Source of the DNA: a virus | Lineage: Duplodnaviria > Caudoviricetes | Strand: one strand, 5' to 3' | Virus record (IMG/VR): IMGVR_UViG_3300004240_000045 | Location: 1 to 28,562 of that record | DNA: 28,562 nt | Shown here: one piece after another, positions 2,772 through 17,699 of the stretch | Layout of the letters: every line of letters starts with the position of its first letter | Position numbering within the stretch: the first letter of the stretch is position 1 | Position numbers and translations under genes: made by a program | The notes under the pieces: generated by a model | Databases searched by the model: none | Seen by the model: only the letters and a program-made list of their open reading frames with translations | Told to the model about the DNA's origin: nothing

Positions 2772-3755
2772 TCAGACGAAGCAACGCATCCGGGTGATAC
2801 GGATGTTGCGGTCGTCATCAAACACCTTCGTCCAGTTGGCAGCGGTAGCCAGCTCGGTGTTGCTGGGAGCAGCTTTCGCCGAAGTACCTTTCCAGCTGAT
2901 GCCGTTCGGGTGCACAAGGTAGTGCGTACGGTTGATCAGATAGTCGATGCCCAGGAAGCGATCACGATCGGTTTCCACCGGGGTCTTGGCGGGAGCAGTC
3001 GCATAAGCGAAAGCGCCAGGGCCGAAGAAGTAGGTGTCGTGAACGTCAGTGCTACCAGTGCCGGCGCCAACAGCAACCGGCAGCTTGTCATCAACAAACA
3101 CCGGGCGGCCCAGGTAGGTGCCCTTCTCCAGCGATTCAGCCGACAGGCGGGTGTCAAGCTGAGAGGTGGAGGAAGACGGGACGATGAGGTCCATCTTCAT
3201 CAGGGCGTAGTAGACCGGCGAACGCATCATGATGCCGGTCAGCTCGTCACCAGCATCACCAAGCTTGGCGATACCGTCCACCATCAGGGACTGGGACAGC
3301 TGCGAGGAAGTGCCGCCGACAGCGTGGCTGGTAGCCAGGGGGCCGCCGGTAGCGAAGATGCCCTGCAGGATCGACACACAGGTCTTCTGCATGTCGCGGA
3401 TCCAGTAGCGACCGGTGCTGCGGGCGATGGCCTGCATCGGGTCGGAACCGGACAGATCGGCTGCAAGGTCACTGGACTTCCAGCTCTTGCGGCGCATGTT
3501 GCGCACACCGACTTGCAGGTCGCCTGCGATGTCGGTAGGGGTGGAGGCCTCGGTGTCGGAATCGATCTCGGAATCACCGGACAGATCGCCGAAGAAAGGA
3601 AGGTCGATCGTCTTGCCGCCCTTCTGGAACTCAGACTGGATGGCAGCGTTCGTGACCATCAGGCCGGAAGTGACCAGGGCGTTCTTGTCCTGGATCTCTT
3701 CCTGCTGATACTCAAGGAACAGCTCGGGAATAAGGGGGACACCTGCGAGAAGCAT
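2772..3755 (-). CDS. Major capsid protein
   Basis: 327 aa; IPELF..Y, GG.TI.LPFF.DLSGD, DLAA.LSGSDPM.AI, TYLGRPVFVDD, VETDRD and HP.GISW motifs of a common siphovirus coat family; strongly biased codons; followed by a terminator. Confidence 0.9.
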   Translation of the reverse strand: MLLAGVPLIPELFLEYQQEEIQDKNALVTSGLMVTNAAIQSEFQKGGKTIDLPFFGDLSGDSEIDSDTEASTPTDIAGDLQVGVRNMRRKSWKSSDLAADLSGSDPMQAIARSTGRYWIRDMQKTCVSILQGIFATGGPLATSHAVGGTSSQLSQSLMVDGIAKLGDAGDELTGIMMRSPVYYALMKMDLIVPSSSTSQLDTRLSAESLEKGTYLGRPVFVDDKLPVAVGAGTGSTDVHDTYFFGPGAFAYATAPAKTPVETDRDRFLGIDYLINRTHYLVHPNGISWKGTSAKAAPSNTELATAANWTKVFDDDRNIRITRMRCFV

Positions 3756-6774: not shown

Positions 6775-8478
6775 TCAAGCTTCGCTTACTTCAGGGGATG
6801 CCTCGTTGGGCTCACGCTCGATCGCGGCAAAGGCCGATGGCTCGATCCCGCTCTGGATGTTGTTGGTCCCTGGCGTCAGGTCGCCGCTTGGCTGGCCGGG
6901 CCTGCCGAAACGTGCAACCAGCTCGGAACGCATCTCAGATCCGGTGAGCCCGATCTTGTCCAACAGGGACTTGACGTTGAAGCCATGGACACCTTCAAAC
7001 ATCTCGCCAGCTTCCAGCATTTCAAGCATGGTGCCAATGGGGATCACCTCAGCATCCTTGTAGAGCGAATTGATCGACATGACCTGCTGGCTATGAAGCT
7101 TGGCGGGGATGAAGTTCTTGCTGATGCTGATTTCAACTTTGGGATACGTGGTGGTTTCGTAGCCAGACGCATACCACAAGGCACGGTTAATGCAGTCTTG
7201 CAGCGAACCAACCAGTACGGCAAGCTGTGAATCAGACTGCGAACGATCAAGGAGCTTGGCAAAGCCGGATTCAACCTGACTCTTACCTGGTGCCATTGCA
7301 ATAGCGGCCAGCCTGTCCATTGAGGCTTCGATACGTGCAAGTTCTTTCAGGGTCGTTTCGGCGCCATCCATGCCAGGAGAGATCATCCCGAACTTTGCTT
7401 GCTCGTTCTGGCTGAACAGGCTACGACCGGATCCGCTGTAGATCTCCTCGTCTGGCCTGATGCCGGTTCCGGTCAGCAGCGGAGAGGAGTTAAGGTGGAT
7501 GGTTTCTGACAGGTCAGCGCAGGTTGCCCAGTGATGCAGGTTCAGCCGTGCAATATCAAAGAGCAGTGGCCTTGCGCGACAGAAAGCCTCCTCCTTGCCG
7601 CCGTAGCACGGCACGAAAGGAATATAGTCAATTGACAGGTAAGAAATATTGTCATCCGACAGGATGTATGAGTTGTTGCCGGCCGTCATGTTTTTTTCGT
7701 AGACCCTGACGCGAACACGACGGGGCTGACCAGGATCTTCCTGCTCTGGAATGTCGTAGACAACGACGGTCGGCACCACTTCTTCGTAGTGCTCATTAAC
7801 AGCGCTTGCACGTCTGATCTCAGACTTAATGCGAAGGTAGGTGACGCGAGCCTGGTAGTAGGTTTCTCCGTTGATTGTTACCGGGCCGTTGTCATGGCGG
7901 CAATCCAGCACGTCATCAACCTTAATGGTTGAAAAGTATGGACGGTATCCACGCTTGCGCACCTCAACCTTTGAAAGCTGCTCGTTGACCTTAGGATATT
8001 CGGCCATCAGACCTGCAACACCGCCATTCAAGGCTTCGGTGAATAGGGTTTTGGCAAAGGATGTGATAGACTTGCCTTCAAGATTGGCGTTCTTGAAGAA
8101 CTCTTCCCATTCTTCCGGCAGCTCCTGCGGCAGAATGACACCCTTTCTCAGGGCTGTACCAACAATAATGTCAACAAGGTGAGAATAGAACGGCTCAAAA
8201 CATGACATCGCCCGCGTCTTGCGGACGTTGTAGCTATCTGGGTGTTCCTGAAAGTCTTGCGGAATATAGTCGCTGATCGCTTCATCAAGATAGAACTCAG
8301 GCAGTATGCAGAACTTGATCGGAGCAATTCTGGCGATCTGCTCAGCCTGGTCAATCGAGTAGCTATCTACATCCGTGACTTCCGAATAAACCTTTTCAGT
8401 TTCAGGTTCTCGCCGTTCAAAAGGAATCGGCAGATCGTCCGAGCTAAGGATGATTGAATTCGGTACGTCAATGGCCAT
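6775..8478 (-). CDS. Portal protein (DUF4055-type)
   Basis: 567 aa; E....Y..R..RA, NANLEG.SI..F, RPYF, IPFV..Y and PLL.DIA.LNL.HW motifs; follows the terminase. Confidence 0.88.
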   Translation of the reverse strand: MAIDVPNSIILSSDDLPIPFERREPETEKVYSEVTDVDSYSIDQAEQIARIAPIKFCILPEFYLDEAISDYIPQDFQEHPDSYNVRKTRAMSCFEPFYSHLVDIIVGTALRKGVILPQELPEEWEEFFKNANLEGKSITSFAKTLFTEALNGGVAGLMAEYPKVNEQLSKVEVRKRGYRPYFSTIKVDDVLDCRHDNGPVTINGETYYQARVTYLRIKSEIRRASAVNEHYEEVVPTVVVYDIPEQEDPGQPRRVRVRVYEKNMTAGNNSYILSDDNISYLSIDYIPFVPCYGGKEEAFCRARPLLFDIARLNLHHWATCADLSETIHLNSSPLLTGTGIRPDEEIYSGSGRSLFSQNEQAKFGMISPGMDGAETTLKELARIEASMDRLAAIAMAPGKSQVESGFAKLLDRSQSDSQLAVLVGSLQDCINRALWYASGYETTTYPKVEISISKNFIPAKLHSQQVMSINSLYKDAEVIPIGTMLEMLEAGEMFEGVHGFNVKSLLDKIGLTGSEMRSELVARFGRPGQPSGDLTPGTNNIQSGIEPSAFAAIEREPNEASPEVSEA

Positions 8479-8636: not shown

Positions 8637-11117
8637 TCATCTCCAGCGACCGCCATGACCAGCCCTGGCGCCAGCTCTCGGGAAGACCTGCCAGATCAAA
8701 TAACGCAAGGCATCCCCAGCGTGCGAATAATCGGTCGCGCCACCCTTACTCGGTTTCAGTGTCTTCGGATCATAAGACCAGCGCTCAGCAGAGCTAATAG
8801 TATTGTGACAAGTGGTTGGATTCAGTAGAATCAGTCCACGGTGCATGTGAACATTGGCGTGCGCAAGGGTTTCTGAGATCGGTGGATTGCGCCGTTCTGC
8901 AACAACTTGAACACCAGCAGACGCAAGGATTTCATGATCGCTTTGCGTGGATGAGGTGGAATCATGCTTGCCGCTTGCGTCTGGATAGCAGGTGATCAGC
9001 CTGTTGGCAAGATGATGTGGGTATTTTTCGCGAAGATGCGCAACGAGTGCAAACGTATCGGAAACCTTGGATTCAGCAAAGCCATGTAGCTGCTGGCCGG
9101 ATGGACCCGGCCTTACAACTCCGTAAACCGCATGGCATTGGCCAATGTTAAAGTCAGCGCCAAATACGATACGCTCATTGCGCTCAGGTAGGAAGATCCC
9201 AGTTGTGTGCAGACTTCTGTCAAATTCGTAGAAGACAGTAGCGGACTCAAGATTAACAAACTCACCGTTAAGGTAAGCTTTGATGAGCTGAGGATGGTAC
9301 TTGAGCTTAAGGTCTTCGACGAAGCCCGGATCAAGGTGAGGGTTGTCCTCTGATTTGCCGCGATACAACTTTTTGTTGTCGGCCTTTTGCTCCTCAAAGA
9401 AGGTGTACATCCAGCCATAGCCTTCCGGTGTTGATGCGGCTGCAATTTGTGGACAGTTACCAACACGAACGCGACCCTGCAGCTTGATCATCGCCTTTTC
9501 GGCGGTTTCAGGCCTGGTCGTATCAGTTTCGTCTGTTGCAATGCTTGCGGCGTTGACACCGATGAGACGTTCGTAGTTCTCCATCGAACGGAGAAGCACC
9601 GGAGTTTCGCCGCCTGGGAGCATTAACTTGAAGCTTGGCCTAGGAGATGCCTTGAAAGTGTGCGGAATTGCGTATCGCTCCAGCATCTCGTTCCACTTTG
9701 GCAGTGCAACGTCGTCGATTAGCGGAATGGTTGGCTCAAGAAAAAGGTGTGTAAAACCTTGGGAGCGGAAGCACAAAAGCAGTTGCTTTGCGACAAGGCT
9801 GTGGGTCTTGCCCGAGTTGTGATGAAGAATTCCGTGCGCTTCGTAATGATTCCATAACGGTACATGAATATCATAGAAGTCGTCAGTACGAACATACTCT
9901 ACGTTTTCCAGGCTTGCCCATGTATAGTGGGAATTCAATGAGCTTGATTGCCATGCCGGGGACAACCGTGACCGAAGCGGAGAGGAGCTGGATCGTCCAG
10001 ATGCACAAGGCTGGAGTTGATCCAAAGAAAATTGCTGCACAGGCTCAGCGAAATTACGGGACTGTGCTAAGGATCCTGAAGCAAAGCCGTATTGAAACAA
10101 CCAGGAGGGGTCCATGGGACCTTCTGACAGATGAGCAAAAGGATCAGTGCAAGAAGGATTATCAACGAGGTTATTGCACCTCGTACCTGAGCAAGGTTTA
10201 TGGGGTGACCCCACAGCGGCTGCTCCAAGAGTTTCAAAAGTCGAACTTACAGAGCCCAACGAATCGCGTAACGGGCATAGAGAAACTTTATGACTGCAAG
10301 GAAGCGGTAATTCACGATTACACAACAGATTCAATTGGAATGAGGGAGGTTGCTCGTCGGTTTGGCGTTCACGAAGGGACAGTCCGTGTATTTCTTGATC
10401 AAGAAGTTGGTCTGAAGAATCGGGGTGGTCAGCCGGGCGAAATGAACGGCATGAATAAAGGTCGGCAAATTGATCAAACTGATAGAGATCACGGAAAATA
10501 CTGGGCTCGCCGAACTGTTGAGATTGCGATTGGCAAAAAACTTCCCAAGGGCTGGGTAATTCATCATATGAACGAAAATCCGCGTGATCAAAGGCACTCA
10601 AATCTCTGGTTGTTTCCGAACTCGGAATCTCACGGGACGTATCACGCACGGCAATTAGATCGCCTGGCTGCAGGTGGCCTAATTCCCGCCAGCCAAACGG
10701 CGTCAGAAAACGATGGGCTTTGGTTGCCAGAACTTCTTGCCCTAATGAAGTCAGAACCCGATAAAGCGGAGCAACTCCTTTCTTGTACGCAGGCGTAGCA
10801 ACTGCTTCGCCGCAAAGCGTCTGAACTTTAATAGGCGTGCTGGTCAACTCCTTGATTGGCACGCCATTTATCAGTGTTTCACCAGCGACGCAGCCATACC
10901 CTCCACAGAAGCCGACGTACTTATTTTCAAAGTCCTGGACGAAGGCTCTCTGATATGGCAGCAGATCCTCAAGGATCTTGATCTCGGCTGCCTGTACGTC
11001 AAAGCCGGAGTTGGAGCGCTTCTTCAGCCTTGTTAGTATTCCGCTGTCATGCAAAAGGCCGAGAGAGCGGACTGATGCTCGGTCGGCGTAGTAGTTGCCC
11101 TTCGTTCTGGCTGGCAC
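8637..11117 (-). CDS. terL: Terminase large subunit precursor containing an intein (826 aa; 467 aa after splicing)
   Basis: LLPYQ adenine motif, Walker A GGYG|SGKT split by the intein, Walker B ATDETD, motif III ASTPEG, nuclease FGADFN, YPDASG and C-terminal HAGDALRY. Confidence 0.95.
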   Translation of the reverse strand: MPARTKGNYYADRASVRSLGLLHDSGILTRLKKRSNSGFDVQAAEIKILEDLLPYQRAFVQDFENKYVGFCGGYGCVAGETLINGVPIKELTSTPIKVQTLCGEAVATPAYKKGVAPLYRVLTSLGQEVLATKAHRFLTPFGWRELGHLQPGDLIAVRDTSREIPSSETTRDLSAFDHADFRSYDELPSPWEVFCQSQSQQFGEPSIFRDLYQFDQFADLYSCRSFRPADHPDSSDQLLDQEIHGLSLRERQTDEQPPSFQLNLLCNRELPLPCSHKVSLCPLRDSLGSVSSTFETLGAAAVGSPHKPCSGTRCNNLVDNPSCTDPFAHLSEGPMDPSWLFQYGFASGSLAQSRNFAEPVQQFSLDQLQPCASGRSSSSPLRSRLSPAWQSSSLNSHYTWASLENVEYVRTDDFYDIHVPLWNHYEAHGILHHNSGKTHSLVAKQLLLCFRSQGFTHLFLEPTIPLIDDVALPKWNEMLERYAIPHTFKASPRPSFKLMLPGGETPVLLRSMENYERLIGVNAASIATDETDTTRPETAEKAMIKLQGRVRVGNCPQIAAASTPEGYGWMYTFFEEQKADNKKLYRGKSEDNPHLDPGFVEDLKLKYHPQLIKAYLNGEFVNLESATVFYEFDRSLHTTGIFLPERNERIVFGADFNIGQCHAVYGVVRPGPSGQQLHGFAESKVSDTFALVAHLREKYPHHLANRLITCYPDASGKHDSTSSTQSDHEILASAGVQVVAERRNPPISETLAHANVHMHRGLILLNPTTCHNTISSAERWSYDPKTLKPSKGGATDYSHAGDALRYLIWQVFPRAGARAGHGGRWR
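9922..9928 (+). promoter_or_regulatory. Candidate -10 element (G-TATAGT) for the intein-nested HNH gene
   Basis: 24 nt before ATG 9953, the same spacing as TGG-TAGAAT to ATG 12686 of the second HNH gene; no clear -35. Confidence 0.4.
9953..10798 (+). CDS. HNH homing endonuclease with three N-terminal HTH modules, nested antisense inside the terminase intein
   Basis: 281 aa from ATG 9953 (alternative ATG 9938). HTH-like units: VTEAERSWIVQMHKAGVDPKKIAAQAQRNYGTVLRILKQ, LTDEQKDQCKKDYQRGYCTSYLSKVYGVTPQRLLQEF and VIHDYTTDSIGMREVARRFGVHEGTVRVFL. Linker GEMNGMNKG. HNH_3-type core VEIAIGKKLPKGWVIHHMNENPRDQRHSNLWLFPNSESHGTYH. Confidence 0.88.
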   Translation: MPGTTVTEAERSWIVQMHKAGVDPKKIAAQAQRNYGTVLRILKQSRIETTRRGPWDLLTDEQKDQCKKDYQRGYCTSYLSKVYGVTPQRLLQEFQKSNLQSPTNRVTGIEKLYDCKEAVIHDYTTDSIGMREVARRFGVHEGTVRVFLDQEVGLKNRGGQPGEMNGMNKGRQIDQTDRDHGKYWARRTVEIAIGKKLPKGWVIHHMNENPRDQRHSNLWLFPNSESHGTYHARQLDRLAAGGLIPASQTASENDGLWLPELLALMKSEPDKAEQLLSCTQA

Positions 11118-11270
11118 TTAGCGGGAGCTGGTATGTGATTGTAGTGAAGGGGTTTCGTAGGTAGCAATTTCCGCCTCCACCCTGGAGCGATACACCCGGC
11201 CGCTGACGCCGGTGGTGTCCGCCAGCTCGACGGCTATGAAGGCGAGGATCTGTTCGCGGCGGGTGGTCAT
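11118..11270 (-). pseudogene. Truncated 5' remnant of a foreign tail-terminator-like gene (50-codon ORF)
   Basis: Not in ORF track. MTTRREQILAFIAVELADTTGVSGRVYRSRVEAEIATYETPSLQSHTSSR; the first ~32 aa resemble the N-terminus of lambda gpU-like proteins. ATGA-coupled to the upstream gene; its TAA abuts the terL GTG. Confidence 0.55.
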
Positions 11271-12091
11271 GGGATCGCGGCGGCGATGGCGTTGATCAAG
11301 GTGGTGACGCGGGCGTCGAGGAGGGCGAGGTCCAGGGCTTCGCCGATGCTGTAGAAGGGCAAACGGGCATTGCTAAGGAAAGCGGGAGATCCGTTGTCGT
11401 TTTGCGCAAAAATAAAGTGGCTTCGTGTGCCCGGATTTACCGCCGCATCTGTTAAACCACTTGTAAAAGCGTTGTCAGATCTAACCACAAAGCTGGTGCT
11501 AGATGTGCGGCTGGTTCCATAAAGCCCGGCCGCTAGCGTGACATTTGATGCCGTGTCGCGACTTCTGTTTCGCAAGTCTCCTGCGCTTTCGAGAAAATCA
11601 TCAGCAGTTAGGTAGCCACTAAAAGCACCAACATACCTCCTCGCTGCTATACCAATACTTGCCAAGTATACCGAGAGGTGCATATTACTTGTTGGATCAG
11701 CGTTTGCAGCTCGATTACTGTTCAAGTATTTCGTGGTGCCATTCCCAATCAATCCCGTCTTCCTGTTGAAATCAGCACTCACAAAGTTGTTATTCGTCGG
11801 CGCTGCCCCCACCAGCGGCACCAGCGCCCCGATCAGTGTGCGAGCGCCGGCCAGGATGCAACTTGCCTTGATTGCGCTCCAGATGCCATCTTGCTTACAA
11901 CCGATGACGAAATTATTGATGGCGTAACGAGTGGCAGTTTCAAGCGTTTGACCATCAGCCGCCTCAACAGCGGTGATGTATGCAATGGCATCGGGGTCGA
12001 AGCTGAAAGTCTTGGCAAGCACCAACTTCGCCCCGGTTGGCTTGGCAAGCACCAACTTCGCCCCGGTTGGCTTGGCGATGGCCAGCGTCAT
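11267..12091 (-). CDS. Putative virion appendage / lectin-like protein
   Basis: 274 aa; DPDA.AYITAVEAADGQ.LE...GCK.DGIW.AIKASCILAGART and FYSIGE.LDLALLDARV motifs recalled from freshwater phage proteins; AT-richer middle. Confidence 0.6.
   Translation of the reverse strand: MTLAIAKPTGAKLVLAKPTGAKLVLAKTFSFDPDAIAYITAVEAADGQTLETATRYAINNFVIGCKQDGIWSAIKASCILAGARTLIGALVPLVGAAPTNNNFVSADFNRKTGLIGNGTTKYLNSNRAANADPTSNMHLSVYLASIGIAARRYVGAFSGYLTADDFLESAGDLRNRSRDTASNVTLAAGLYGTSRTSSTSFVVRSDNAFTSGLTDAAVNPGTRSHFIFAQNDNGSPAFLSNARLPFYSIGEALDLALLDARVTTLINAIAAAIP
12011..12076. repeat. Perfect 30-bp tandem duplication (2.2 copies)
   Basis: CTTGGCAAGCACCAACTTCGCCCCGGTTGG twice plus CTTGGC; encodes AKPTGAKLVL twice. 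Confidence 0.95.
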
Positions 12092-15434: not shown

Positions 15435-17699
15435 TCAGGGATTAGGGGAGCGCATCGCGCCTTCTACAATATCAGCAACTTCCTGGGTTGTTGCAGTATT
15501 GACTGCACGACTTAGCTCAGTAGCAAATTCAATGCGAGCTTGATCTGCAATTTCTTCGGGTGTCGGAACATCCGGTGCATTCACCAGATTGTCCACTGTT
15601 CCACCGGTAACTGTGCGACTTGCAGCACCCCAGACCGCTACTGCATTAGCACTTGCAGTTGGAGGCGTTGTATAGGCACTGGAGGCGAGGCGTGTCTGCA
15701 GTGTGCCACCAGTGCGCTCAAGATCTGCGCGAATTGCGGCTACCAATGCTACCTGGTCGATATTTTGGTTACCGATCGCATTGACGATTGCATTCAGGAT
15801 CTGCTGGCCATCGGATTCATTCAAGATGCCGGCTTGAACTGCAGTTGCGATTGCGGTGCGTTCTGCTTCTGTAAGCGAATAGCCGACTTTATCGGCAGCA
15901 GCCCAGACAGCAGTTGCAATTTCGGAAGCAATGGGCAGTGCATCAAGCTGCGTATCAAGGTTGGCGGATGTCAATCCAACTGCCGCTCTAATACCTGCGG
16001 CATCCAGGGGTGCGTCGTAATCGGTGGCCGCCAGTCGTGTCGCCAAGGTGCCGCCGGTACGTTCCAAGTCGGCGCGGATCGCAGCCACCAGCGCGACCTG
16101 ATCGACGTTGGTGTTACCGATGGCGCCGACGATCGCATTGAGGATCGCCTGGCCGTCGCTCTCGTTCAGGATCCCGGCCTGCACGGCGGTCGCGATGGCG
16201 GTGCGCTCGGCCTCGGTGAGGCTGTAACCGGCCTTGTCGGCGGTGGCCCAGACGCGAGACGCGATGGTGTCCGCCGATGGCACGCTCGGCGCGTTCGTCA
16301 GCGTGTCCACCGTCCCCCCTGTGATCGTTCGCCCGCTGGCGTAGGCCCACACCGCAGCGGCGATCGTGGCGCTGTTGTCGATGGCGGTGGTCAGCGTGCG
16401 GGTGGCAGCGGCCCAGACGGCGGTGGCGATGTCCGCAGCGGTGGGGCGGCTGCTCACCGTGGCATCGAGATTGTCCAGATTCCCGGCCCGGCCACTGGTG
16501 AGGCGGCTCAGCAGGGTGGCGGTGCCGGAGGTGTCGGCGCCCAGCTTCGTGCTGTTGCTGTCCATCTCGATGCGGACCTCTGCAGCCGTGGGCAATGCCG
16601 CAAGCTGCGTGTCCAGGTCGGCCGCTGCCAGGCCCATGGCGCTGCGGATGCTGGCCGCTGTGATGGCTGCTGTGCCGGTGGTGTTGTCCACGGGGACACC
16701 GACGCCAACGGATGCAGCGGGGGGCACGGCGCAGGTGCCGGTCAGCTCGCCAGCAGGGCCGTAGACAGTGCCGCTGCGGACGTTGCCCACGGCAGGGTTG
16801 CCGCCTACGGAGTCGGCGGTGTAGAGGGGGCGGATCGTGGCGAGGTTGGCGCTGCGGATCTGGTAGTAGGTGGCGGGTGGTGTGGTGTTTTGCCAGAACC
16901 AGCGAAGGGCGTAGACGGGATTAACTCCATTCGCTGATGCAAGAAACGGCCCGGTTAGAATGTTTACGGCGGTTGCGTTGATAGAGTAAAGTCCAGCGTT
17001 GGCGGTGCTCGCAATAATTTGGCCCGTAACTACAACTGTGCCGGATGCTTGACTGTAAACAGCGGGACCGGTTGATGCGGTGCAGTCTCCAGTGATATTA
17101 ACCGTTCCTGCAGCGAGGTTGGAAACGCCGTAGGCATTGGCATTGGAACCTCCAAGCACCGATCCAGTAATGTTGACTGTTCCGCCGGCCGCGTTGACTA
17201 CGGCTGGACCATTAAAACCTCCGGCGGAGGCTGTTCCTGTAATGTTAATCGTCCCTGTTGATGCGTTATCAACACCTGGGGAGGTTCCGCCACCACCGTT
17301 ACCCCCGCCCGAGCAGTTTCCAATGATATTAAGTGTTCCAGTAGAGTTATTTCTAACCGCCGGAAAGATCGCACCCGCACCGACAATATTGCCTTGAATC
17401 GTACATGACTGACCGGTTGTAAGGTTTGACGTTAGTGCTGGATTTGTGACACCACCCGCCGCCACAACAATGCCGGAGCCGGTGCAAGTTACTGTAATGT
17501 TGTTATTTGGAGTAAATGTGCCACCGGCCGTCACGCCGGTTGCACTTGAGTTTCTTACGCTCAGCACCGTAGGCGACGTATCAATCGTCACCGTAAACGT
17601 GTTGCTATACACATCATCCGCAGCCGTCGGCAGCGCACCCGTGGACCACAGCGTCGGGTCCGACCAAACCCCCGTCTTAATCGCCCGAACAATCGCCAT
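15435..17699 (-). CDS. Large fibre/spike protein with N-terminal beta-helix-like repeats and a duplicated helical segment
   Basis: 754 aa; repeated GT(V/I)NITG..GG units; P...NVRSGTVYG....TGT..VP.A.SV..GVPVD.TTG motif; I..AVW repeats. Confidence 0.7.
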   Translation of the reverse strand: MAIVRAIKTGVWSDPTLWSTGALPTAADDVYSNTFTVTIDTSPTVLSVRNSSATGVTAGGTFTPNNNITVTCTGSGIVVAAGGVTNPALTSNLTTGQSCTIQGNIVGAGAIFPAVRNNSTGTLNIIGNCSGGGNGGGGTSPGVDNASTGTINITGTASAGGFNGPAVVNAAGGTVNITGSVLGGSNANAYGVSNLAAGTVNITGDCTASTGPAVYSQASGTVVVTGQIIASTANAGLYSINATAVNILTGPFLASANGVNPVYALRWFWQNTTPPATYYQIRSANLATIRPLYTADSVGGNPAVGNVRSGTVYGPAGELTGTCAVPPAASVGVGVPVDNTTGTAAITAASIRSAMGLAAADLDTQLAALPTAAEVRIEMDSNSTKLGADTSGTATLLSRLTSGRAGNLDNLDATVSSRPTAADIATAVWAAATRTLTTAIDNSATIAAAVWAYASGRTITGGTVDTLTNAPSVPSADTIASRVWATADKAGYSLTEAERTAIATAVQAGILNESDGQAILNAIVGAIGNTNVDQVALVAAIRADLERTGGTLATRLAATDYDAPLDAAGIRAAVGLTSANLDTQLDALPIASEIATAVWAAADKVGYSLTEAERTAIATAVQAGILNESDGQQILNAIVNAIGNQNIDQVALVAAIRADLERTGGTLQTRLASSAYTTPPTASANAVAVWGAASRTVTGGTVDNLVNAPDVPTPEEIADQARIEFATELSRAVNTATTQEVADIVEGAMRSPNP
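15685..16252 (-). repeat. Two copies of a ~74-codon segment 345 bp apart (about 16030-16252 and 15685-15907)
   Basis: Both encode VWA.ADK.GYSLTEAERTAIATAVQAGILNESDGQ.ILNAIV.AIGN.N.DQVALVAAIRADLERTGGTL.TRLA but use different synonymous codons. Confidence 0.9.

Follow-up and report, generated by a model that had tools for sequence, protein, structure and literature searches.

An antisense HNH endonuclease gene within a contiguous phage terminase intein: a probable homing element selected on both strands

Introduction

Unsplit inteins with an endonuclease open reading frame (ORF) on the opposite strand are on record from actinobacteriophages, in which Gosselin et al. (bioRxiv 10.1101/2025.01.02.630785) report antisense LAGLIDADG or VSR-like endonuclease ORFs. 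The accessible part of that preprint includes terminase large subunits among the hosts of such non-canonical inteins, proposes invasion by free-standing nucleases, and cites Gorbalenya 1998 and Gogarten 2002 for earlier antisense cases. Here we analyse a related arrangement in IMG/VR virus record IMGVR_UViG_3300004240_000045, a 28.6-kb linear record (28,562 nucleotides, estimated to be ∼29% complete; the whole stretch is hereafter called the window), in which the Walker A loop of the terminase large subunit (TerL) is interrupted by a contiguous intein and the opposite strand of that intein encodes a predicted HNH endonuclease. An earlier note on this DNA, made from the sequence alone, knew of no described unsplit intein with this layout. 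That statement has to be withdrawn in view of the actinobacteriophage inteins; the unsplit antisense layout is known because Gosselin et al. describe it.

As far as the accessible text of Gosselin et al. goes, the two systems share an unsplit intein, an endonuclease ORF on the opposite strand, an unstructured in-frame linker and phylogenies that point to continued homing. Of the features that mark their non-canonical type, the window element has the contiguous intein, the intact opposite-strand nuclease ORF and a distribution incongruent with that of the exteins, and it departs in nuclease type, being neither LAGLIDADG nor VSR-like. It carries an HNH_3 domain with three helix-turn-helix (HTH) units, whereas HNH is listed only in frame in that part of the preprint. 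In addition, a fixed −10-like box is present here, the word 'promoter' has no occurrence in the text of the preprint that was accessible, and the hosts here are not actinophages. With HNH, inteins that carry an antisense homing gene, of which few are on record, gain a third nuclease type.

Other described systems hide a nuclease in different ways. A cyanobacterial DnaX intein with an out-of-frame LAGLIDADG endonuclease is described by Phillips et al. (bioRxiv 10.64898/2026.09.14.751524); from the accessible part of that preprint, the similarities are a second ORF under purifying selection, raised substitution ratios in the intein frame and coexisting full, mini and empty alleles, while the nuclease there is LAGLIDADG and the host gene chromosomal. 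The strand of the Synechocystis DnaX nuclease is reported inconsistently in the accessible text of these two Gogarten-lab preprints, as a +2 ORF by Phillips et al. and as anti-sense by Gosselin et al. Arsenault et al. (PMC11855218), again in the part available, describe an out-of-frame HNH in a methylase with no intein. Where published insertions without stops conceal a His-Me/HNH-type nuclease in a different reading frame, the nuclease is on the same strand, and the ShiLan case lacks a splicing domain. In-frame HNH_3 inteins hold HNH_3 between the splicing halves, as here, but as part of the spliced-out intein, made only through translation of the host gene. Fractured genes (Dassa et al. 2009, as cited in the accessible part of Gosselin et al.) likewise place a nuclease gene between splicing halves, but the intein is split there and a continuous ORF here. 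In the literature searched, a scope that left out most subscription journals, no unsplit intein with an HNH gene on the antisense strand was found; this variant, its breadth and the embedded promoter-like box appear to be unpublished.

Results

The TerL element combines two genes, an intein that is predicted to splice and, antisense to it, an HNH gene whose product would drive homing. It is probably an active homing element, selected on both strands. The features of the intein strand are as follows; dN/dS denotes the ratio of non-synonymous to synonymous substitution rates.

8637..11117, minus strand: TerL precursor, 826 aa; an ORF with matches to Pfam Terminase_6N and PHROGs terminase large subunit
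9816..10892, minus strand: contiguous class-1 intein, GGYG/C...HHN/SGKT; 0 stops, Pfam Intein_splicing, site empty in 12 distinct alleles
10647..10892, minus strand: N-terminal splicing region, intein residues 1-82; Cys1 at 10890-10892, block B TKAH at 10713-10724
9930..10646, minus strand: stop-free Ser/Pro/Leu/Gln-rich linker; no Pfam match, intein-frame dN/dS 1.5-6.4, stop avoidance
9816..9929, minus strand: C-terminal splicing region, residues 322-359; block F FYDIH at 9864-9878, block G HHN at 9816-9824
9813..9815, minus strand: +1 Ser of the C-extein (the Ser of SGKT), the predicted splicing nucleophile; Ser or Cys in all compared alleles

The precursor consists of a 75-aa N-extein, a 359-aa intein and a 392-aa C-extein. 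The intein spans 1077 nt (359 codons) without a stop, from the Cys after ...FCGGYG to the His-His-Asn before SGKT, and insertion at this site is indicated by 12 distinct empty alleles that join GGYG to [SC]GK[TS]. Its sole Pfam match is Intein_splicing (PF14890; E 1e-10, 42 bits, above the cut-off). The best sequence match in the PDB, the DnaB mini-intein 4o1r (E 9.5e-9), covers the two ends only, and other solved inteins likewise match both ends, indicating homology to the Hint fold by sequence. All class-1 residues are present, namely C1, T57-K-A-H60 of block B, the Asp of block F (FYDIH), the terminal HN and the +1 Ser. From these intact residues, the purifying selection on them and the essential nature of the host gene, the TerL precursor is predicted to splice. 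The contiguous intein with intact motifs in the terminase Walker A loop therefore stands as the earlier note had described it, as does its Ser/Pro/Leu/Gln-rich central region without a recognisable motif: the central 250 aa contain 16% Ser, 11% Leu, 9% Pro, 7% Gln and <1% Lys. No endonuclease domain was found in the intein frame, either by Pfam on the linker or by dN/dS, which exceeds 1.5, and the element is in this respect not a canonical bifunctional intein. A split intein or fractured gene was considered and ruled out, as all 14 complete elements are free of stops and no split form was encountered among the close relatives.

The opposite strand carries the following features.

9953..10798, plus strand: antisense endonuclease gene, 281 aa; three HTH units, GxxN linker, HNH core, helical tail
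9971..10405, plus strand: three three-helix (HTH-like) predicted DNA-binding units, residues ∼7-48, 60-96 and 116-151, from AlphaFold2 helices
10520..10645, plus strand: predicted HNH (beta-beta-alpha-metal) core with H204, H205, N217, H227 and H231
10646..10795, plus strand: nuclease tail, residues 232-281, overprinted on intein residues 33-82 including block B; doubly constrained DNA
9923..9928, plus strand: −10-like box TATAGT, in the C-terminal splicing region, 24 nt before the HNH ATG; no canonical −35

HNH_3 (PF13392) is matched by residues 190-225 of the 281-aa ORF (E 4.5e-8, 33 bits against a cut-off of 24.8), HTH families (HTH_23, HTH_58, HTH_28) by residues 7-53 and, weakly, 130-157, and the PHROGs HNH endonuclease family at E 6.9e-10; at E≤0.1 no LAGLIDADG or Vsr match was obtained for this ORF in Pfam or PHROGs. 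Profiles run on both frames thus place the intein domain only on the minus frame and HTH and HNH on the plus frame, the outcome that the earlier note had expected. AlphaFold2 predicts three three-helix units, then the nuclease core, then a helical tail. The first unit resembles HTH domains structurally (Z up to 7.9), and all structural matches of the full-length model fall on it. A linker motif, GEMNGMNKG, occupies residues 162-170. The core domain model has a mean predicted local distance difference test score (pLDDT) of 83.6 and the strand-loop-strand-helix order, and its top four structural matches are all HNH proteins: the Gme HNH nickase, a Cascade-HNH subunit, I-HmuI and GVE2 HNH. H204, H205, N217, H227 and H231 are invariant in 10/10 close homologues; across 83 sequences H205 and N217 are invariant and H204, H227 and H231 are conserved in at least 90%. 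The protein is therefore predicted to be an active HNH endonuclease. It resembles the I-HmuI family (PDB 1u3e; Z 3.4, root-mean-square deviation 3.2 over 61 residues) in a putative beta-beta-alpha-metal core and extra DNA-binding modules, and differs in that the HTH units precede the core, there is no intron, the metal site is His-rich and a helical tail is overprinted on intein DNA. That tail is modelled at a pLDDT of 93-96 (residues 231-270). The three HTH units, the GExN.M.KG linker and the HNH_3 core had been recognised in the earlier note, which had confined the gene to the central region of the intein; this last point does not hold, as residues 232-281 overlap intein residues 33-82.

The two frames are related in such a phase that HNH codon position 3 faces intein codon position 2, and selection acts on them differently along the element. 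Over HNH residues 1-231, the window and locus L002 (L numbers designate loci) differ by 93.5 synonymous and 15.5 non-synonymous changes in the HNH frame, a dN/dS of 0.02. HNH-frame values are 0.02-0.32 in 9/11 pairs, the other two being saturated, while the intein frame over the same DNA gives 1.5-6.4. In the intein-only regions intein-frame dN/dS is 0-0.32, with 0.09 for the N-terminal splicing residues beyond the HNH stop (window against L002) and 0-0.27 in the C-terminal splicing region. By its substitution ratios the linker is the mirror image expected of a passive linker, and is best described as a passive read-out, in the intein frame, of the antisense gene. In the DNA of HNH residues 232-281, intein-frame synonymous divergence is 0.064, compared with 0.25 in intein-only regions (four close pairs summed), and by this measure both frames are constrained.

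The intein frame is devoid of stops in 14/14 distinct full inteins, whereas permutation of synonymous HNH codons predicts 3.2-12.0 per element. The chance of a stop-free frame, P(0), ranges from <0.0005 to 0.019 per element, probabilities that are not independent because the 14 elements are related by descent and their stop counts are not independent trials. For the window element 7.9 stops are expected, and 0/2000 permutations were stop-free. In the same antisense phase, eight ordinary genes of the window contain 1.8-5.9 stops per 100 codons. Together, the sequence comparisons show that the intein frame is actively kept open and that the nuclease sequence is under purifying selection. A chance origin (an antisense ORF arising from a decayed linker, or an intein frame left open by HNH codon usage) is accordingly a negligible prospect: long antisense ORFs do arise by chance, the scaffold gene having a 155-codon open stretch in this phase, but Pfam and PHROGs domains on the plus strand, a dN/dS of 0.02 and intact frames in all 14 distinct elements stand against it, and on the dN/dS and stop-permutation tests it is already refuted.

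One part of the linker behaves differently. At intein residues ∼113-125 (10520-10556) an SPW-x-x-F motif followed by a helix-like stretch is kept in four older mini-inteins that have no nuclease, and over this region HNH third positions are unusually fixed (187, 189, 192, 193, 197). This 'junk' linker may hold a co-opted structural piece.

The −10-like box is fixed in position. On the antisense strand, a TAnnnT hexamer lies 107 nt from the C-terminal end of the intein in 15/15 full elements, and at any other position within 170 nt in at most 2/15. It is found in 0/5 older minis and is retained in the one mini of recent deletion, L023 (1/1). The intein residue over the box is Tyr in 11, Phe in two and Ala in two, with T as the third base in 15/15; three adjoining Ser codons are AGC, and most other two-fold columns near the box favour C. 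An in-frame ATG follows 21-33 nt after the box in all 15. Among 16 distinct distant elements (below), seven share a constant offset, two codons further inward, for a TATAAT, TACAAT or TAGAAT hexamer, with an ATG exactly 6 nt after the hexamer in five of the seven (a leaderless layout), and two further elements have a hexamer elsewhere upstream. Promoters consisting of a −10 element only are numerous in cyanobacteria. The conserved box is consistent with a promoter from which an opposite-strand HNH transcript would start. Two alternative upstream starts of the HNH ORF, ATG 9938 and TTG 9788, were rejected: L002 lacks the ATG, and the stretch concerned contains stops in other elements.

Relatives of the HNH protein are nested in the same way. 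In 11/11 viral loci with the protein, its gene lies antisense in an intein that is free of stops and occupies this Walker A position of TerL. Profile searches yielded 14 viral and 14 metagenome loci, of which 13 and 12, respectively, were strong; all strong matches are nested alike and the three weak ones are not nested. Two distinct elements (L008, L070) are cut by contig ends. After removal of duplicates, including copies identical to the window, 14 distinct complete elements remain, with inteins of 309-360 aa and nucleases down to ∼45% identity. L009, L010 and L011, shorter full elements (inteins of 309-311 aa), have a nuclease that lacks the first HTH unit, with both frames intact; loss of this module would alter target length. 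Among cultured phages the HNH protein has no close relative, with one weak match (13 weak records for a distant relative), and a close-family alignment scan of species-representative genomes confirmed 0/42 candidates.

A search with the C-extein gave 33 loci, four of them without a readable site. With the other loci, 12 empty, seven mini (six distinct inteins, 149-159 aa), 14 full and one partial allele were obtained, so that all three types of terL site about which the earlier note had asked exist. Full, mini and empty alleles are intermixed on the terminase tree, and the full label needs at least four changes across starred branches of the C-extein tree. The starred sister pairs L003/L036 and L060/L039 each combine a full allele (named first) with an empty one, at ∼96% DNA identity on both flanks, whereas L003 and L060 have inteins ∼93% identical and exteins ∼80% identical. 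Between L004 and the window, identity is 79% in the splicing domain and 38% in the exteins. This allele distribution, incongruent with the extein tree, appears to be the pattern of homing.

The mini-inteins differ in origin. Read antisense, L023 joins the HNH start directly and in frame to the tail; 210 codons are missing between them, and the deletion junction falls on a short repeat that contains CTTCA. A full element was therefore the ancestor of at least this mini. Five older minis carry antisense stops, and four older minis form a starred group adjoining the full L003/L060 inteins. L014 (642-1106) and L034 (3524-4000) are mosaics that break near block B: read antisense, their 5' part still encodes the HNH tail present in full alleles. 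Identity of L014 to the window is 86-100% in the first 180 nt and falls to 43-53% beyond. These mosaics indicate that full and mini alleles recombine inside the intein.

In the TerL clade of the window, the +1 codon is a TCN Ser in all 11 distinct intein-bearing alleles and is AGY or TGC in 7/12 empty ones; the empty sisters of occupied alleles (L036, L039, L018) are all three AGY. Short co-conversion or endonuclease-resistant empty sites may underlie this bias.

The layout extends beyond the close family. A profile search of 1.84 billion representatives returned five proteins at E≤1e-30 and 236 at E≤1e-10, many matching by HTH only. Most of 49 listed proteins, chosen for a match in the nuclease region, have the nuclease tail as well, recognisable by an ENGG/ESGG-like motif. 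On the opposite strand this motif reads as the His-Arg-Phe of block B, from which further nested elements were predicted. Scans with a distant alignment covered 80 viral loci (the best 80 of 174) and 34 genome loci, and 117 loci were classified, including three weak earlier matches and L070. An antisense HNH ORF in a complete intein was found in 18, and in two more by hand (L088, L070); 10 have it on the same strand out of frame, 27 near a same-strand intein, 58 lack a nearby intein match and two lack a usable core. L170, with a long antisense ORF and no intein match, was not counted. The antisense set amounts to 16 distinct distant elements, all in the phase of the window. Their hosts are mostly TerL, with four lacking a domain label of their own (L097, L122, L128, L155). 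L157 (918-5579, minus strand) has the layout in the Walker A intein of a helicase, and L088 (399-4775, minus strand) at a different site of a TerL that appears to carry several inteins. In an HNH tree from a short core (91 columns), the close family and eight distant elements form an antisense-only group of 23 rows with a Shimodaira-Hasegawa-like approximate likelihood-ratio test (SH-aLRT) value of 86, and eight other antisense rows fall in a mixed group with two free rows and one in-frame row; 91 columns cannot settle one origin against several.

The same classification turned up HNH ORFs on the same strand and out of frame in stop-free inteins (L095, L098, L099, L101, L103, L104, L105, L129, L159, L173; also L138 and L175). 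By Pfam the hosts include DNA polymerase A (L095, L101, L104, L105, L129, L159) and terminase (L138, L175). This is a further hidden-nuclease layout, resembling the published endonuclease VII-like type.

Discussion

We consider it likely, at a probability of roughly 80%, that splicing rescues TerL while a separately transcribed HNH endonuclease drives homing, the two functions being encoded on opposite strands. The TerL mRNA would be translated through the whole element, the splicing halves would fold into a Hint domain with the linker looped out, and splicing would restore the Walker A loop. A −10 box of the host sigma-70 type within the DNA coding for the intein C-terminus would start the opposite-strand HTH-HNH transcript. 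The three HTH units may then bind a long site, allowing the HNH domain to nick or cut at or near the Walker A codons of an intein-free terL in a co-infecting phage, and repair would copy the whole element into the cut gene; cleavage and homing are proposed by analogy with known HNH homing enzymes and from the allele distribution. Selection maintains the sequence of the nuclease and, in the intein frame, only forbids stops, as seen in the substitution and permutation results, and loss of the nuclease by in-frame deletion leaves mini-inteins, as L023 shows. The composite mobile element that the earlier note had envisaged is thus favoured by purifying selection on the nuclease, a stop-free intein frame, a patchy distribution incongruent with the exteins and a conserved antisense −10-like box. 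None of the sequence findings that it had named as contrary emerged: the minus-frame insert holds no domain, and the plus ORF has HNH and HTH matches and is intact in homologues. Its suggestion that the layout is an intermediate fits poorly, because the arrangement is stable, always in a single phase, both among elements whose nucleases are only ∼45% identical and among more distant relatives.

Several observations weigh against this interpretation. With regard to mobility, the empty label is not more clustered on the extein tree than in shuffles (179/500 as low), and the full/empty sister pairs could also be obtained by precise loss of the intein. With regard to expression, a canonical −35 is absent at the TATAGT box and a generic sigma-70 two-hexamer scan gave no plus-strand site, returning just two minus-strand sites, which is chance level; 6/16 distant elements are without a hexamer matching at 5 of 6 positions, and in a seventh (L088) the only such hexamer lies within the ORF. 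Another nearby Tyr/Phe column is also T-rich (13/15), so that the third-base argument cannot decide the matter by itself. With regard to the nuclease, structural match scores of the core are weak (Z just 3.3-3.7), Foldseek searches of the PDB with the two nuclease models yielded nothing at E≤0.001, I-HmuI was matched at E 0.042 only, with a profile, and the core alone has no PDB sequence match, sequence searches of the PDB with the nuclease returning mainly HTH and designed-repeat proteins. Finally, four residues before N217 the close family has Gln (DQR/DQT) where distant relatives have Asn.

The nuclease might instead parasitise the intein, cutting mini-intein alleles, or any terL near the site, and converting them to full elements, so that its target would not be the empty junction only. 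HNH nickases such as I-HmuI nick occupied and empty alleles alike, and the mosaics L014 and L034, whose 5' halves still read antisense as the tail of full alleles, point to recombination between full and mini alleles inside the intein. These mosaics could also stem from conversion that was aborted or from ordinary recombination where the DNA is conserved, and nearly identical empty sisters of full alleles exist. Moreover, the promoter-like box and the tail both overlap splicing sequence; the nuclease could not move without the splicing regions, and the two genes would travel as one unit. We regard parasitism of this kind as unlikely.

Still less probable is that the nuclease is kept for the benefit of the phage, as a packaging cofactor like the HNH proteins encoded beside the terminases of cos phages or as a weapon against co-infecting relatives, with homing as a side effect. 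Its position within terL and the strong purifying selection would suit such a role, and HNH proteins that aid terminases are mentioned in the accessible part of PMC11855218. Against this, close TerL relatives include 12 distinct empty and six distinct mini alleles without a nuclease at the site, the layout also occurs in a helicase intein (L157), and the window has no match to PF01844 and the 281-aa protein no CxxC pairs, both of which a zinc-type packaging HNH would be expected to have. Interference competition could coexist with homing.

It is very improbable that the antisense protein is an inactive DNA-binding protein, such as a regulator, derived from an HNH gene, with the intein moving by ordinary recombination. 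The Asn-to-Gln change near the active site and the weak fold scores would be in keeping with inactivity, as would several database names ('transposase', 'transcriptional regulator'), but these names track the HTH repeats, the five core residues are invariant or nearly so in 83 sequences, and the distribution is that of a homing element.

Beyond the homing element itself, we put forward, tentatively and as the less probable outcome, that antisense HNH inteins are a stable and widespread design with a nuclease lineage that has no free-standing member, the two genes being locked together by the box and the overprinted tail. If so, a promoter read by the host polymerase would make the nuclease early, during replication and recombination, and not late with the terminase, and many inteins now labelled 'decayed' or 'long-linker' would be active homing elements. 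The box suggests a possible route of expression for a hidden ORF, a point that the accessible parts of the related papers do not settle. The breadth suggests that the design is common in uncultured phages, for which gene callers usually retain a single ORF of the pair. In the 50-codon overlap, opposite strands of natural DNA encode two structured protein regions, and one terminase clade with full, recent and old mini, and empty alleles opens the homing cycle, and the gain and loss of endonucleases, to study on natural variants.

Genomic neighbourhood

The closest cultured matches of the TerL C-extein are the cyanophages KBS-S-2A and S-H1 (42% identity), and the host of this tailed phage is therefore probably a picocyanobacterium. 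A head and packaging module is encoded on the minus strand, comprising terL (8637-11117), the portal gene and the major head protein gene (2772-3755).

6775..8478, minus strand: portal gene, directly downstream of terL; PHROGs portal, E 1.4e-58

An ORF at 11267-12091 (minus strand) begins with an N-terminal tandem repeat, two copies of AKPTGAKLVL (12020-12091), followed by a phrog_17104 domain of unassigned function. A 754-aa ORF at 15435-17699 (minus strand) is without significant family match, and a 465-aa open frame lies opposite it at 15540-16937 (plus strand).

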